A stretch of DNA of 64,000 nucleotides from Escherichia phage Eryne, in the sequence record PQ529420. One strand, given 5' to 3'. The position numbers and the translations under genes are program-made. This document shows, piece after piece, positions 743 through 63,291 of the stretch. Each line of letters begins with the position of its first letter. Positions within the stretch are counted from its first letter, which is position 1. The notes under the pieces are model-generated. The model saw nothing but the letters and a program-made list of their open reading frames with translations, was not told the DNA's origin and searched no databases.

Positions 743-880
743 ATGAACGCATCACAGCAGATCGAAAAATTCAACCGCAGCAAGGCGCGTAAAGATTGGA
801 ACGAAGAGATCACCAAAAAAGGCGACAAGCGGAACAAAACAAAGAGAGATCGCAGCACAAAAAGATACTGGAACGAATAA
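743..880 (+). CDS. hypothetical small basic protein (45 aa, Lys/Arg-rich)
   Basis: ATG at 743 with AAGAGGAAG RBS; below the 60-aa track cut-off; followed by terminator. Confidence 0.45.
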   Translation: MNASQQIEKFNRSKARKDWNEEITKKGDKRNKTKRDRSTKRYWNE

Positions 881-887
881 CAAAAAA

Positions 888-918
888 GGGCGCAATAAGC
901 GCCCTTTTAGCTTATATA
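888..918 (+). terminator. rho-independent terminator
   Basis: GGGCGC-aata-aGCGCCC hairpin followed by TTTT. Confidence 0.6.
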
Positions 919-999
919 GAGGCTTGTTACCCATAGGCAATGGTAACGCCAGGATAAGCCTATAAATCAACGTTAGACGGCTTTACAGGAGCTTTAAAA

Positions 1000-1182
1000 A
1001 TGAAATTAGACGAAATAAGCAAGGCACTAGCCCAGGGGCAAAGGTTATGCGCCCGATATCGTGATCAATATGGCTTCATAACTAGCGGCGTGATCCTGGG
1101 GATTGAAGGCAATAAGATTTTTATTGACACGTTGAAAAACGTTGTATATAGTGACAATATAATCTCAATAAAACATATATGA
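1000..1182 (+). CDS. hypothetical protein (60 aa)
   Basis: track ORF; RBS CAGGAG upstream. Confidence 0.5.
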   Translation: MKLDEISKALAQGQRLCARYRDQYGFITSGVILGIEGNKIFIDTLKNVVYSDNIISIKHI

Positions 1183-1190
1183 GGCAAGAA

Positions 1191-1592
1191 ATGAAAAAAT
1201 TATTGATCGCTGGTTTAATCTCTTTTGGCATGGTTGGAACATCTAGCGCGGCGATATCCTCCACAGTAGCAGAATTAAGCGCCGTTGATGCAATGGAAAA
1301 CGTCATGCTTATTAATAATGCGATCCCCGATGAAATCATGGAGGATTCACACATGATCGCTTATGGTGCTGTTACACAACTAACGGCAAAAATAGATAAA
1401 TCTATTGTTAACGGCTTAAATGAAGATGTGCCATGTGAAATTATTACCAGTGTGCTGACTACTCAAAATTTTACGCCGTGGTTAAAAAGTATTCAAAAAG
1501 TACACAGTACAGCCGCAGATCGTAGCAATGAAAAACTAGTGTCAGCACTTGCAACGTATACCCTAGCAAAATGCACCGAGATAAAAGATTGA
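1191..1592 (+). CDS. hypothetical secreted protein (N-terminal signal peptide)
   Basis: start moved to MKKLLIAGLISFGMVGTSSA; hydrophobic h-region then Ala-rich cleavage-like site. Confidence 0.5.
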   Translation: MKKLLIAGLISFGMVGTSSAAISSTVAELSAVDAMENVMLINNAIPDEIMEDSHMIAYGAVTQLTAKIDKSIVNGLNEDVPCEIITSVLTTQNFTPWLKSIQKVHSTAADRSNEKLVSALATYTLAKCTEIKD

Positions 1593-1639
1593 CAACATAG
1601 AAAGCACGTTATAAGATACACACAACAAAGGAGAACTAC

Positions 1640-1942
1640 ATGAACGGCATAGCTAAAACGTTTTTTCTTTTTTCTGGTGTAAATGATCCATCAATAAAAG
1701 TCGATAGTGTAAAAGAAAACAATACTATCACCGCTAAATTGTTTCAAGATGAAACAAATAACGTGCTAATCATTAATCTTAAAGAAATAACGAAAGGTTA
1801 TTATACTATTGCTTACCATGCAATCTATCGTGCTGGTACTAGTGAGGAAGTGCAAACAAGCAACAACGAAAGCGCGGCACTACCTGGTGATCTGGTGCTG
1901 GGCGTTATCAGTTTAATTGTCAATGATTTTTTTAAGGAGTAA
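1640..1942 (+). CDS. hypothetical protein (100 aa)
   Basis: track ORF; RBS AAAGGAGA upstream. Confidence 0.55.
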   Translation: MNGIAKTFFLFSGVNDPSIKVDSVKENNTITAKLFQDETNNVLIINLKEITKGYYTIAYHAIYRAGTSEEVQTSNNESAALPGDLVLGVISLIVNDFFKE

Positions 1943-1946
1943 AACC

Positions 1947-2042
1947 ATGCCTTATTTACATTTATTTTTCGGTATCTTATTGACAGGATCTTTTTTCTTC
2001 TGTATGCTTGTTTCTATTGTAAACCACGTTTTAAGACATTAA
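1947..2042 (+). CDS. small hydrophobic peptide (31 aa)
   Basis: ATG 5 nt after previous stop with TAAGGAGT RBS; MPYLHLFFGILLTGSFFFCMLVSIVNHVLRH; not in track. Confidence 0.4.
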   Translation: MPYLHLFFGILLTGSFFFCMLVSIVNHVLRH

Positions 2043-2051
2043 GGAAACAGC

Positions 2052-2171
2052 ATGAAAATTATTCCCGTACAATATAGCGTAATAAATCCAGCATACGAGG
2101 AAGGAAGGAAAACAAGCATGGCTTTATGTTGTATTGCTACTATAGCCATGTTGTTATACATTGTGTTTTAA
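2052..2171 (+). CDS. small membrane peptide (39 aa)
   Basis: ATG with AAGGAAACAG RBS; C-terminal hydrophobic stretch MALCCIATIAMLLYIVF; not in track. Confidence 0.4.
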   Translation: MKIIPVQYSVINPAYEEGRKTSMALCCIATIAMLLYIVF

Positions 2172-2271
2172 TAGGTTTTATAGTTGTACGCTTTAAAGGC
2201 TTGACAATTTTTTGTTATGCTTTAAACTATATCTTGAAAACGGCAAAGGCCGCAAACAAAAGGGTAAAATT

Positions 2272-2595
2272 ATGAAATCTGTGATCGGTGTTTATTTGGA
2301 TAACTCTGATTTTTTCTATCATCGCGCTCGTTTCCTTGATGCGATTGAAATGATAGAATCAGGCTTTAAAGAGTATCGCCTTGCACATGATGACCTGGAA
2401 GCATTACAGGGCAATAGTGTTTTTACATTGCAAGCTAAAGCACTATGCAAAAGCCGGATCGACATTGCGAGCAAAAAGATAGAACGCGGCATGTCCTGGT
2501 TGCGCACCGCAGAAATCAACATGGGGCAATGGTACGGCGAAAACTTAGAAAATAAACGCACTTTTGTAAATGTAGAAAATCTTAAAGATTATTGA
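2272..2595 (+). CDS. hypothetical protein (107 aa)
   Basis: track ORF 2212..2595 with start moved to internal ATG (MKSVIGVYLD) behind AAAGGG RBS. Confidence 0.5.
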   Translation: MKSVIGVYLDNSDFFYHRARFLDAIEMIESGFKEYRLAHDDLEALQGNSVFTLQAKALCKSRIDIASKKIERGMSWLRTAEINMGQWYGENLENKRTFVNVENLKDY

Positions 2596-2624
2596 TTGAC
2601 AGCACACCTAACAGATAGTATATT
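2596..2624 (+). promoter_or_regulatory. sigma70-like promoter
   Basis: -35 TTGACA, 17-nt spacer, -10 TATATT. Confidence 0.5.
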
Positions 2625-2636
2625 GTATCTCATAGA

Positions 2637-61799: not shown

Positions 61800-61884
61800 G
61801 GCTAAGTGGTGGAATGGTATACACGATACGCTTAGAACGTATTGCCCCAAGGGATTGTGAGTTCGAGTCTCACCTTAGCTACCA
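61800..61884 (+). tRNA. tRNA-Leu (anticodon TAG), CCA encoded
   Basis: acceptor GGCTAAG/CTTAGCT, anticodon arm ATACG-CTTAGAA-CGTAT, long variable arm, T-arm GTGAG-TTCGAGT-CTCAC, discriminator A. Confidence 0.7.
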
Positions 61885-61899
61885 AATTATTACAGATTG

Positions 61900-61978
61900 T
61901 GCGGGATAGAGGAGTCTGGTCGTCCTCGCCAGTTTCATATGCTGGAGATCATCGGTTCAAATCCGATTCCCGCCTCCA
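61900..61978 (+). tRNA. tRNA-Met or Ile2 (anticodon CAT), CCA encoded
   Basis: acceptor (T)GCGGGA/TCCCGCC with 1-72 mismatch, D-arm GAGG..CCTC, anticodon arm CCAGT-TTCATAT-GCTGG, T-arm ATCGG-TTCAAAT-CCGAT. Confidence 0.55.
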
Positions 61979-62036
61979 ATAAATACCTCCCTTCTGGTGT
62001 AATGATTAAGTTACATTGACACTTCAAGGAACTCAT

Positions 62037-62119
62037 AGCCGGGTAGATTTAAAAGAGTATGGTACTCAATATGGCTCCAAACCATAGATCAAGGGGTTCG
62101 ATTCCTCACCTTGCTGCCA
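62037..62119 (+). tRNA. tRNA-Trp-like (anticodon CCA) with irregular 5' half, CCA encoded
   Basis: anticodon arm TATGG-CTCCAAA-CCATA and T-loop TTCGATT are clear; acceptor AGCCGGG/CCTTGCT has one mismatch and about 9 extra nt precede the D-arm. Confidence 0.4.
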
Positions 62120-62124
62120 ATTAT

Positions 62125-62200
62125 TGTGGTATCGTACAGATGGTTAGTACACTCGACCGATAATCGAGAAACAACGGTTCGACTCCGTTTACCACGACCA
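62125..62200 (+). tRNA. tRNA-Ile (anticodon GAT), CCA encoded
   Basis: acceptor TGTGGTA/TACCACG, D-arm GTAC..GTAC, anticodon arm CTCGA-CCGATAA-TCGAG, T-arm AACGG-TTCGACT-CCGTT. Confidence 0.65.
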
Positions 62201-62311
62201 AACTCCGTGCCAGCGGTGTCTTCGAAGAACAAGCCTAGTTCCTTCTGAGATGGAGGGGTGCGACTCCTTAACGCACATACTACTACTACTAAATACTTAT
62301 CAGGAGATATT

Positions 62312-62581
62312 ATGTATACTTTAAAAGTAATTCGCAAGTTTCCTCAAGAAGAGGAAGTAAGAATTTATAACACTGTACCATTCGTAGTAAATGAAGAAGA
62401 ATTCTTTTATTGCTTAGAAGATGAAGTAATTATTCAATATCATTGGGAAGGTTACGACAGACAAGATGGTGTTGTAGCTTCTGTGCTTGCTGGTGATAGA
62501 GTGTTATTCATTCACAAAACTGAATCAGCATATTTAATGAATGATAAAGGACAAACTGTTAAAGTAATTAACAGACCATAA
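62312..62581 (+). CDS. hypothetical protein (89 aa)
   Basis: track ORF 62258..62581 with start moved to ATG behind CAGGAGA RBS. Confidence 0.5.
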   Translation: MYTLKVIRKFPQEEEVRIYNTVPFVVNEEEFFYCLEDEVIIQYHWEGYDRQDGVVASVLAGDRVLFIHKTESAYLMNDKGQTVKVINRP

Positions 62582-62593
62582 AGAATTTTATAA

Positions 62594-62620
62594 AAGCCTC
62601 CTTTTTGGAGGTTTTTTATT
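62594..62620 (+). terminator. rho-independent terminator
   Basis: GCCTCC-ttttt-GGAGGT hairpin followed by TTTTTT. Confidence 0.65.
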
Positions 62621-62687
62621 ATCTATAAAATAAAGATCTTTACAAAACGTATAAAATATGTTATCCTTAAGTAAGGAGGTGCATATT

Positions 62688-62978
62688 ATGCCTAAATTGA
62701 AAAGAGGTCGAGGTAGACCTACAGCCGAAATGCAACAGATTTATGCTATGGATGCTGCACAGGCGCAAGTAAAAGAAATTTTTGCTGGTCGTTATTTAGA
62801 TGCTATGCGTTACATTGCAGATCTTGTTGTAGATGAAAAGGCTTCTGCTAATATTAAGTTGACTGCTTCTAAGATCATCAAAGAACAAGTAGAAGAATGG
62901 CTGGAAGAACATTATGAATCTATGGAAGAAGAAGATATTCTTCCAGAAAATTCTCCCCCTCAAAAAATCGTTATCTAA
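62688..62978 (+). CDS. hypothetical protein with N-terminal KRGRGRP basic motif (possible DNA-binding)
   Basis: track ORF 62658..62978 with start moved to ATG behind TAAGGAGG RBS. Confidence 0.5.
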   Translation: MPKLKRGRGRPTAEMQQIYAMDAAQAQVKEIFAGRYLDAMRYIADLVVDEKASANIKLTASKIIKEQVEEWLEEHYESMEEEDILPENSPPQKIVI

Positions 62979-63023
62979 TTCTCCTCTCTTGGGAACTTTG
63001 TTCCCCCTCTCCTTGTTAATTAA

Positions 63024-63056
63024 CACCCCTTTCCGAAAGGTTAGGGGGTTTTTTAT
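63024..63056 (+). terminator. rho-independent terminator
   Basis: GC-rich hairpin CCCCT...AGGGGG followed by TTTTTTATTTT. Confidence 0.55.
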
Positions 63057-63117
63057 TTTATACCTATTGCTTTTATATATGTTTTTATGATATGATTAAT
63101 ACAGGAGGACTATAAAA

Positions 63118-63291
63118 TGAGAAACTATGTAGCTAAACACGATTTTAATAGGGCTTCTTATCACAGAGATAAGAAGAACAGTTATTCGCGTAAATGGGAT
63201 CTGGAGGAAGAGTTAGACTATGATTACAGAAGAACAATGGAAGGAGATTTTGGAGAATGCACAACCGATGGTAGTGAAGAAGATAGTTAAT
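63118..63291 (+). CDS. hypothetical small protein (57 aa)
   Basis: ATG with CAGGAGGA RBS; not in track. Confidence 0.4.

Follow-up and report, generated by a model that had tools for sequence, protein, structure and literature searches.

A 64,000-nt stretch of Escherichia phage Eryne (sequence record PQ529420), referred to here in its full length as the window, raises the question of which of its open reading frames (ORFs) shorter than 60 codons are genes. An earlier note on this DNA had proposed that many plausible genes, at least 14, lie below a 60-aa cut-off, and had named twelve of them. The proposal is borne out: ten of the twelve named ORFs pass tests of conservation and selection, and the count is a fair one, with 16 well-supported genes of less than 60 aa found in the window. 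Most of the flagged ORFs are very probably genuine, ordinary small genes of a phi92-like phage, equipped with their own Shine–Dalgarno sequences (SDs) and set in tightly packed operons.

The window belongs to a Justusliebigvirus (phi92-like) myovirus of E. coli. Its first 20 kb are 98.6% identical to Escherichia phage Paula, and 232 other phage records match the same region, nearly all of them Stephanstirmvirinae of the genera Justusliebigvirus and Phapecoctavirus (phAPEC8-like), the sister genus. GC skew and the ORF map divide the window into three strand blocks: plus at 1–20.6 kb, minus at 20.7–55.7 kb, where the genes of nucleotide and DNA metabolism are located, and plus at 56–64 kb. Within the genus, we compared regions of Paula, Nernie, A145, alia, PD211, phi92 and phiWec187 along with short segments of six others; outside it, Phapecoctavirus DIJ07P1 and DIJ07P2, three IMG/VR contigs and three Vequintavirinae-type phages. 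An IMG/VR scan with the 128-aa neighbour 4218..4604 returned three close relatives and otherwise mostly unrelated contigs sharing that domain, and the annotated phage collection was used instead.

Short ORFs are over-represented on the coding strand. A codon-usage score was trained on 60 long genes, ORFs of at least 60 aa scoring as coding were treated as occupied, and every ORF of 20–59 aa in the gaps between occupied genes was listed; a match of at least 4 nt at 4–12 nt spacing was counted as an SD. Gap ORFs of at least 30 aa with an ATG and such an SD number 17 on the sense (coding) strand against 2 on the antisense strand, which shows that the excess of short ORFs over chance is real; a few of the 17 were later judged spurious. 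Small ORFs at 59.5–62.3 kb were discarded for overlapping the 15 tRNA genes located within 59.5–62.2 kb.

The supported ORFs are maintained across considerable evolutionary distances. Ten of them (starting at 743, 2052, 19357, 19513, 32885, 36524, 49220, 53514, 63117 and 63220) have cross-genus copies of 39–85% amino acid identity in which ATG, SD and length (same or within six codons) are retained, and three more (3047..3217, 3891..3995 and 9649..9825) are 91–100% identical across genera. Pairwise cross-genus ratios of nonsynonymous to synonymous substitution rates (dN/dS) lie at 0.06–0.3; the proportion of synonymous differences (pS) is 0.6–0.8, near saturation, and that of nonsynonymous differences (pN) is 0.1–0.4. 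Within the genus, variable sites summed over 13 supported ORFs (743, 2052, 3047, 3891, 9649, 11912, 13985, 15943, 19357, 19513, 36524, 49220 and 63117) amount to 88 synonymous and 28 nonsynonymous, where ~27% synonymous would be expected. The six rejected ORFs (1947, 2126, 6369, 7519, 16699 and 27938) display 17 synonymous and 32 nonsynonymous changes plus two that create stops. Four further ORFs (8373..8528, 20612..20686, 23110..23232 and 59055..59165) stand outside both sets. These figures bear on the alternative that the short ORFs are chance frames in AT-rich spacers, conserved through regulatory DNA or through the low divergence of the genus. As an account of the set it is improbable: it fails for the ORFs that keep start, SD and near-same length at 39–85% identity while pS approaches saturation and pN stays low, and it leaves both the 88:28 synonymous excess and the 17:2 strand asymmetry unexplained. 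It does hold for a part of the ORFs, as described below.

Several points weigh against taking the supported ORFs as genes. Members of the genus are at least 95% identical, which leaves several ORFs with few informative sites (one in 59055, three each in 49220 and 19357). The codon alignments used for dN/dS were guided by tblastn, which favours the queried frame. An antisense frame sharing the wobble positions shows a similar synonymous excess, so that strand assignment relies on SD, start codon and context, not on substitutions. Literature searches for phi92-like phages turned up no Ribo-seq, transcriptome or small-protein proteome, and the functions proposed for the small proteins derive from composition and position only.

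In its details the earlier note needs some correction. Its coordinates are exact for eight ORFs (743..880, 1947..2042, 2052..2171, 3047..3217, 3891..3995, 15943..16116, 19513..19686 and, on the minus strand, 36524..36670) and one base off for four, the true ORFs being 9649..9825 (given as 9650..9826), 19357..19461 (19358..19462), 59055..59165 (59054..59164) and 63117..63290 (63118..63291). The good SDs attributed to the group are present, at 4 nt or more, in 11 of the twelve; 3047..3217 has GAG only. The attribution of hydrophobic or Cys-pair character suits about seven: 743..880 is basic and lacks Cys, 3047..3217 encodes an acidic soluble protein and 63117..63290 a highly charged one, and the Cys residues of 9649..9825 and 15943..16116 are scattered and form no CxxC pair. 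The check that it suggested, conservation and synonymous-site analysis, comes out in favour of ten of the twelve and against 1947..2042, while 59055..59165 has too few variable sites.

Most of the flagged small genes are already known: the phi92 reference annotation has held them since 2012. That record annotates eight of the twelve with ribosome-binding site features (gp237, gp002, gp021, gp032, gp033, gp070, gp109 and gp116), and it also lists gp009, gp014, gp042, gp062, gp090, gp099 and gp117 with such sites. PHROG families are matched by 11 of the twelve (59055..59165 weakly) and by four extra ORFs (13985, 32885, 49220 and 53514). Pfam scores exceed the curated threshold for two ORFs, 743..880 (PF08200) and 63117..63290 (PF23876, DUF7230). 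New here are only one unannotated 39-aa gene, two mis-called promoter-spanning ORFs and six supported sub-60-aa genes beyond the earlier list (11912, 13985, 32885, 49220, 53514 and 63220).

The unannotated gene is 2052..2171 (plus strand), which by the following comparisons is a real gene absent from the inspected annotations of its own genus. It has its own promoter and encodes a predicted tail-anchored membrane peptide of 39 aa, with a conserved head (Y-x-V-x-NPA-x2-EG-[RK]-K) and a C-terminal transmembrane (TM) segment. The peptide matches phrog_10979 'membrane protein' (E=1.2e-8) over residues 6–39 of the 39-position profile. Homologues of exactly 39 aa, with their own SD and the same topology, are found in three Phapecoctavirus-type genomes at 39–48% identity; dN/dS is ~0.25, and variable sites within the genus are 6 synonymous to 4 nonsynonymous. 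A tblastn search of all phages with the 39-aa peptide finds it in 55 records, all of them genus members: the sister-genus copies fall below significance in the 2.3-Gb database, and were recovered only by searching fetched loci. The gene is missing from the feature tables of all nine annotated Justusliebigvirus records inspected, and the sole feature found beneath its matches is an overlapping ORF, 2126..2275.

Two promoter-spanning ORFs flank this gene, and here the chance-frame explanation does apply. The upstream one, 1947..2042 (plus strand, 31 aa, hydrophobic), extends over the promoter-bearing spacer that precedes 2052..2171, and contains a TTGACA-N17-TATGCT promoter at 1980–2008. PHROG and Pfam searches gave no match for it, and in the sister genus the position is taken by a spacer with a promoter and no ORF. 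Across 14 genomes it shows 3 synonymous and 4 nonsynonymous changes, a neutral ratio, with three of the changes within the promoter hexamers. In favour of a gene are a TAAGGAG SD and an ORF intact in 14 of 14 genomes; the SD overlaps the last codons of the upstream gene. The ORF is annotated in Nernie. With a promoter inside, neutral evolution and no sister-genus counterpart, 1947..2042 is probably not a gene but a chance ORF across the spacer. The downstream ORF, 2126..2275 (plus strand, 49 aa), is called in the permissive annotations of Nernie, ZYD and EmilieFrey, and contains a TTGACA-N16-TAAACT promoter at 2201–2228. It is spurious: its ATG is GTG in A145, two genomes carry frameshifting insertions, the changes are 2 synonymous to 8 nonsynonymous, and there is no PHROG match. 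Permissive gene callers annotate these two ORFs in place of 2052..2171.

Chance frames also account for three ORFs elsewhere in the plus-strand block. In the sister genus, 6369..6509 lacks a start codon, and 16699..16833 shows 0 synonymous to 3 nonsynonymous changes and no SD. The third, 7519..7623 (plus strand, 34 aa), displays dN/dS of ~3 and 2 synonymous to 7 nonsynonymous changes plus one stop, and is truncated in one relative. It lies inside the direct terminal repeat of phi92, which maps to 7364–7706 of the window at 97.4% identity. The ORF-poor region at 6.5–7.9 kb therefore represents the genome terminus in a permuted assembly, and the physical ends fall within the window. Tiny coding sequences are called on both strands of this 1.4-kb non-coding terminus (6500–7950) in permissive annotations, that of Nernie among them. 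Outside such instances we retain the reading of the short ORFs as small genes.

The region 289..5526 (plus strand) is an array of early cassettes, consisting of a TTGACA-N16/17-TAnnnT promoter, a GC-rich 5'-leader hairpin, a weak GAG-type SD and an ATG. A promoter scan combined with leader alignment places promoters with a hairpin leader in seven cassettes, at 289, 2596, 2964, 3536, 3811, 4611 and 5467; promoters lacking the hairpin are found by the scan in the same block at 1124, 1589, 1980 and 2201. The 20-nt hairpin GGCGGGAAATGGTTTCCCGC occurs in four exact copies (327–346, 3004–3023, 4649–4668 and 5507–5526), whereas none would be expected, and variants are present near 2634–2657, 3575 and 3849–3872. 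The leaders fold at -15 to -20 kcal/mol, with z about -3.5 to -3.9. In the Paula record, some of the cassette hairpins are marked as minus-strand terminators. A repeated unit in which a strong sigma-70-like promoter and a stable stem-loop directly precede the SD and ATG of a small gene is the layout of promoter-early stem-loop (PeSL) cassettes, described in T4-type phages (Arbiol et al. 2010, PMC2839356; Comeau et al. 2014, PMC4122927), and all seven cassettes display it. From this layout we infer that the genes at 2052, 3047 and 3891, all in the first 6 kb, are early, and would be transcribed by the host sigma-70 RNA polymerase from individual promoters of their own cassettes.

The first promoter of the array, at 289, serves a unit whose second gene is 743..880 (plus strand) and which ends just before a terminator hairpin at 884–908. 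The 45-aa K/R-rich product, a homologue of phi92 gp237 annotated in both phi92 and Paula, belongs to the T7 gene 1.1 protein family: it matches PF08200 with 46.1 bits (cut-off 21; E=6.5e-12) over model positions 2–40 of 40, and phrog_2490 as well. Phapecoctavirus copies are 60–63% identical with the same start and SD, pS is 0.8 against a pN of 0.3, and variable sites within the genus are 6 synonymous to 2 nonsynonymous. T7 gp1.1 is a strongly basic protein of ~42 aa; the product of 743..880 is likewise small and strongly basic and comes from an early unit, its timing being predicted from sequence. To our knowledge, the function of T7 gp1.1 itself is not established, and PF08200 membership thus gives no mechanism.

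Two of the named ORFs are each the first gene of a hairpin-leader cassette. The ORF 3047..3217 (plus strand; promoter 2964–2992, hairpin 3004–3023) encodes a 56-aa protein matching phrog_20874 (E=4e-45). The protein is identical in Phapecoctavirus DIJ07P2, with five synonymous differences in the gene, and within the genus synonymous sites outnumber nonsynonymous ones 11 to 1; it is annotated as Paula_0076 / phAPEC8_009. The ORF 3891..3995 (plus strand; promoter 3811–3838) encodes a 34-aa single-TM peptide matching phrog_14631 (E=1e-22), with 7 synonymous to 5 nonsynonymous sites in the genus. The frame is unbroken in a Phapecoctavirus-type contig and in three phages of Vequintavirinae type (SYGMH1, nomo and MiataMamis), and the substitutions there are all hydrophobic and conservative. 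A 52-aa form starting at a GTG, annotated in Nernie and SYGMH1, was rejected in preference to the 34-aa ATG form: nomo has CTG in place of the GTG at 3837, and this codon runs into the -10 hexamer (3833–3838), which places it upstream of the predicted transcription start. The weak SDs of 3047..3217 and 3891..3995 are explained by the position of each as the first gene of a hairpin-leader cassette.

The products of the early genes, together with small proteins from elsewhere in the window, suggest what they might do. By composition, the group includes a tail-anchored peptide (2052), single-pass (3891 and 59055) and two-TM proteins (11912 and 49220), a CCHC knuckle (19513), a double CxxCxGxG protein (36524) and several charged soluble peptides. 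It is well recognised that the small early proteins of phages can supply inhibitors of host targets. The early small products would most likely act on host targets during takeover: the proposed set comprises a basic peptide of the T7 gp1.1 type, membrane peptides with a tail anchor or a single pass, and small zinc-binding modules, of which the last would serve as protein-binding adaptors, not enzymes. A more specific proposal makes the early membrane peptides effectors of superinfection exclusion or host takeover that travel on mobile promoter/stem-loop cassettes; it is possible and is advanced tentatively. The peptides do lie in early-promoter cassettes, and the category given to the 2052 family in PHROGs is 'moron, auxiliary metabolic gene and host takeover'. 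In addition, the cassette at 3800–4221 (the 34-aa TM peptide followed by a 72–77-aa gene of phrog_5988) is common, promoter region included, to Vequintavirinae-type phages such as SYGMH1, nomo, slur12 and others at ~85–90% nucleotide identity, which indicates recent exchange between subfamilies. Set against this, the peptides show no homology to known exclusion proteins, and a PHROG category serves as a label in annotation and does not amount to a test. The full combination, in which the early block consists of PeSL-like mobile cassettes exchanged between subfamilies, the 34-aa and 39-aa peptides are takeover or exclusion effectors, and the 39-aa one is unannotated genus-wide, appears rather unlikely. 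If true, the PeSL mechanism would not be confined to T4-like phages, and two defined micro-proteins would be available to test.

The small membrane peptides had also been put forward as candidate holins and antiholins, a candidacy that promoters, gene context and family matches do not bear out. TM segments, one or two per peptide, are present in 2052, 3891, 59055, 49220 and 11912 (Kyte–Doolittle windows >2.4). Holins are late genes, whereas each of 2052..2171 and 3891..3995 has an early sigma-70 promoter of its own, and the membrane peptides in general are located in early cassettes or metabolic operons, not in a late or lysis cassette. In favour of the candidacy, experiments have identified no holin in this genus, and no holin gene precedes the endolysin (PMC12210895). 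In the genus member concerned, no TM proteins lie beside the endolysins, and the published holin candidates, of 61 and 81 residues, are encoded elsewhere in the genome (PMC12210895). Lysis genes in the window comprise a lysozyme gene (32372..32872) together with overlapping genes for an i-spanin and an o-spanin (63326..63757 / 63663..63992; phrog_4297 and phrog_1267, both 'Rz-like spanin'). The pair has the architecture of a two-component spanin: the i-spanin combines a TM segment at its N-terminus with a coiled coil, and the overlapping o-spanin is a lipoprotein with the lipobox LMMTGC. The small ORFs adjoining these genes (32885..33028, 63117..63290 and 63220..63366) are charged, and no hydrophobic or TM segment was found in them. 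The single-pass peptide 59055..59165 is encoded between the NAMPT gene and the tRNA cluster, and a frameshifted C-terminus is tolerated. PHROGs and Pfam gave no holin-family match for any of the candidate peptides. A role of the small membrane peptides in lysis timing, as holins or antiholins, is therefore very unlikely, and we continue to regard them as small genes of the early cassettes and metabolic operons.

The remaining small genes of the first plus-strand block are conserved to different degrees. The ORF 9649..9825 (58 aa, soluble; phi92 gp002) matches phrog_24303, has 9 synonymous to 2 nonsynonymous sites, and is 95% identical in DIJ07P1 with dN/dS of 0.09. The two-TM protein 11912..12079 (55 aa, or 59 aa from a GTG at 11900; phi92 gp009) shows 16 synonymous sites to a single nonsynonymous one, and is annotated in phi92, Paula, Nernie and phiWec187. 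A 55-aa soluble protein is encoded by 13985..14152 (phi92 gp014; phrog_24511, E=5e-42; 6 synonymous to 4 nonsynonymous), which the ORF track carries as a 62-aa TTG ORF, and a 57-aa protein with four Cys by 15943..16116 (phi92 gp021; phrog_15964, E=1e-34; 3 synonymous to 0 nonsynonymous). The 34-aa peptide of 19357..19461 (phi92 gp032; phrog_11666), with a short N-terminal hydrophobic segment, is 61% identical in Phapecoctavirus, where the AAGGAG SD and ATG are kept, and dN/dS is 0.18. Close by, 19513..19686 encodes a 57-aa zinc-knuckle (CCHC) protein (phi92 gp033; phrog_10623) in which C9, C12, H19 and C26 are conserved across genera; Phapecoctavirus identity is 79–81% with dN/dS of ~0.1, and the phi92 record notes it as a 'predicted zinc finger-containing protein'. 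Two plus-strand ORFs without a PHROG match belong to neither set: 8373..8528 (51 aa, hydrophobic), present in only some genus members (A145 and Nernie) with 6 synonymous to 4 nonsynonymous sites, and 20612..20686, a very hydrophobic 24-aa ORF ending the block, with a weak SD (GAG) and 3 synonymous to 1 nonsynonymous sites.

On the minus strand, purifying selection is seen in three genes added to the earlier list. Immediately upstream of the lysozyme gene, 32885..33028 encodes a 47-aa basic soluble protein (phi92 gp062; phrog_14981) with 85% Phapecoctavirus identity and dN/dS of 0.09. Beside the DNA ligase gene, 49220..49399 encodes a 59-aa two-TM membrane protein (phi92 gp090; phrog_19851) with 64–68% identity and dN/dS of ~0.09. 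The 49-aa acidic protein of 53514..53663 (phi92 gp099; phrog_18323) is 78% identical in Phapecoctavirus with dN/dS of ~0.06; its within-genus count was set aside for a divergent replacement in PD211 (50 'variable' sites), and the cross-genus comparison was used. Less can be said for 23110..23232, a 40-aa hydrophobic ORF with a GGAGG SD (phi92 gp042): its start is GTG in the window and ATG in three of four genus members compared, the sites are 2 synonymous to 4 nonsynonymous, no PHROG or sister-genus match was found, and the phi92 record notes 'bad prodigal statistics'. The 33-aa ORF 27938..28039 is ruled out as a small gene. It is the N-terminal fragment of a frameshifted homologue of phi92 gp051, a protein of 190 aa in relatives: an A5 run near 27,960, which is A6 in phi92, A145, PD211 and phiWec187, splits the gene into 27938..28039 and 27468..27926 (152 aa). 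The difference reflects either a homopolymer sequencing error or a genuine pseudogene.

The minus-strand ORF 36524..36670 (phi92 gp070; phrog_8027) encodes a 48-aa mini-protein with two CxxCxGxG motifs, CPVCGGTG and CWNCNGLG, 15 residues apart. The Phapecoctavirus copy has CPVCGGTG and CLNCHGEG: all four Cys are kept at 54% identity with dN/dS of 0.25, and sites within the genus are 13 synonymous to 4 nonsynonymous. Pfam scores stay below threshold for PF00684 (20.2 bits; 32.7 required), Anti-TRAP PF15777 (19.3; 32) and DUF5351 (22; 27); Pfam gives no J-domain match, and a J domain with its HPD motif is absent from the 48 aa. The label 'putative DnaJ chaperone' given to phi92 gp070 overstates a stand-alone 48-aa zinc module. 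A second DnaJ-type CxxCxGxG protein, of 90 aa, is encoded at 17046–17318 in the early block (phi92 gp025, phrog_22955), and is a distant paralogue of the 48-aa module at ~30% identity.

In the last plus-strand block, two overlapping small genes precede the spanins. The ORF 63117..63290 encodes a 57-aa protein of DUF7230 (phi92 gp116; PF23876 at 29.4 bits, cut-off 27; phrog_15229, E=3e-38), with 4 synonymous to 0 nonsynonymous sites and 61% Phapecoctavirus identity. The ORF 63220..63366 (48 aa, soluble; phi92 gp117) has an overlap of 71 nt with it and one of 41 nt with the i-spanin gene. It has no PHROG match, and its copy in Phapecoctavirus DIJ07P2 is 59% identical over 44 aa with the ATG kept. 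Within the gp116/gp117 overlap, the gp117 frame is the better conserved of the two, and 63220..63366 is likely to be a real gene on this comparison. The order upstream of the terminase (63117–63992) is gp116, gp117 in another frame, i-spanin, and o-spanin overlapping the end of i-spanin.

The other named ORF of this block, 59055..59165 (phi92 gp109), encodes a peptide of 36 aa that has a TM segment at its N-terminus and a tail of basic character. It has a TAAGGA SD at 6 nt, a coding score of 0.27, a weak PHROG match (E=4.5e-4) and a single variable site within the genus. The ORF is missing in Phapecoctavirus, where its two flanking genes abut. In phiWec187 (fetched locus ~24,990–25,160), a ~43-nt tandem duplication inside the gp109 ORF shifts the frame of the C-terminal third while leaving a similar ORF length. 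It is a genus-restricted ORF and a plausible candidate gene, with a coding status beyond reach of the available variation. Just upstream, 58820–59041 holds a 73-aa double-CxxC zinc-ribbon ORF (phrog_37033; ~75% identity in Phapecoctavirus). Many Phapecoctavirus records have no annotated feature under this match, suggesting an often-missed small gene just above 60 aa. Within the tRNA cluster, only a 100-nt spacer (61385–61485) separates tRNA-Gly from tRNA-Gln; phi92 (fetched locus 3499–3929) and phiWec187 have ~430 nt there with a 42-aa ORF, gp113, annotated in phi92 as 'putative rIII lysis inhibition accessory protein', and the window has no gp113 ORF.

Many sub-60-aa genes are the expected state for a large lytic phage genome. 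The value of these results lies in annotation quality, not discovery: they show which sub-60-aa ORFs are real in a phi92-like therapeutic-candidate phage. The vetted list is a reasonable start for functional screens, and current understanding is unchanged.

The nearest known system is phi92 itself (NC_023693 / FR775895), which has the same loci, lengths and ribosome-binding sites with DNA 93–99% identical, making the window ORFs orthologues. It differs in that 3047..3217 and 3891..3995 are missing at those positions, and 2052..2171 is present but unannotated. Within the phrog_10979 family, the sister-genus members share length and topology with 2052..2171, yet are only 39–48% identical to it. 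The match of 743..880 to the T7 gp1.1 model is full-length, and the genome here is that of a 146-kb myovirus, not a T7-like podovirus. DnaJ modules (PF00684) and Anti-TRAP share the repeated CxxCxGxG with 36524..36670, which lacks the J domain and C-terminal substrate-binding domain. The cassettes of the early block differ from PeSL of T4-type phages in lineage (Stephanstirmvirinae) and hairpin sequence. In both systems, a strong sigma-70-type promoter and a G-run/C-run stem-loop stand before small genes, mostly of unknown function, in a variable region, and one PeSL subclass has the same arrangement as the window, with the stem-loop downstream of the -10 box and just before the SD (PMC2839356).

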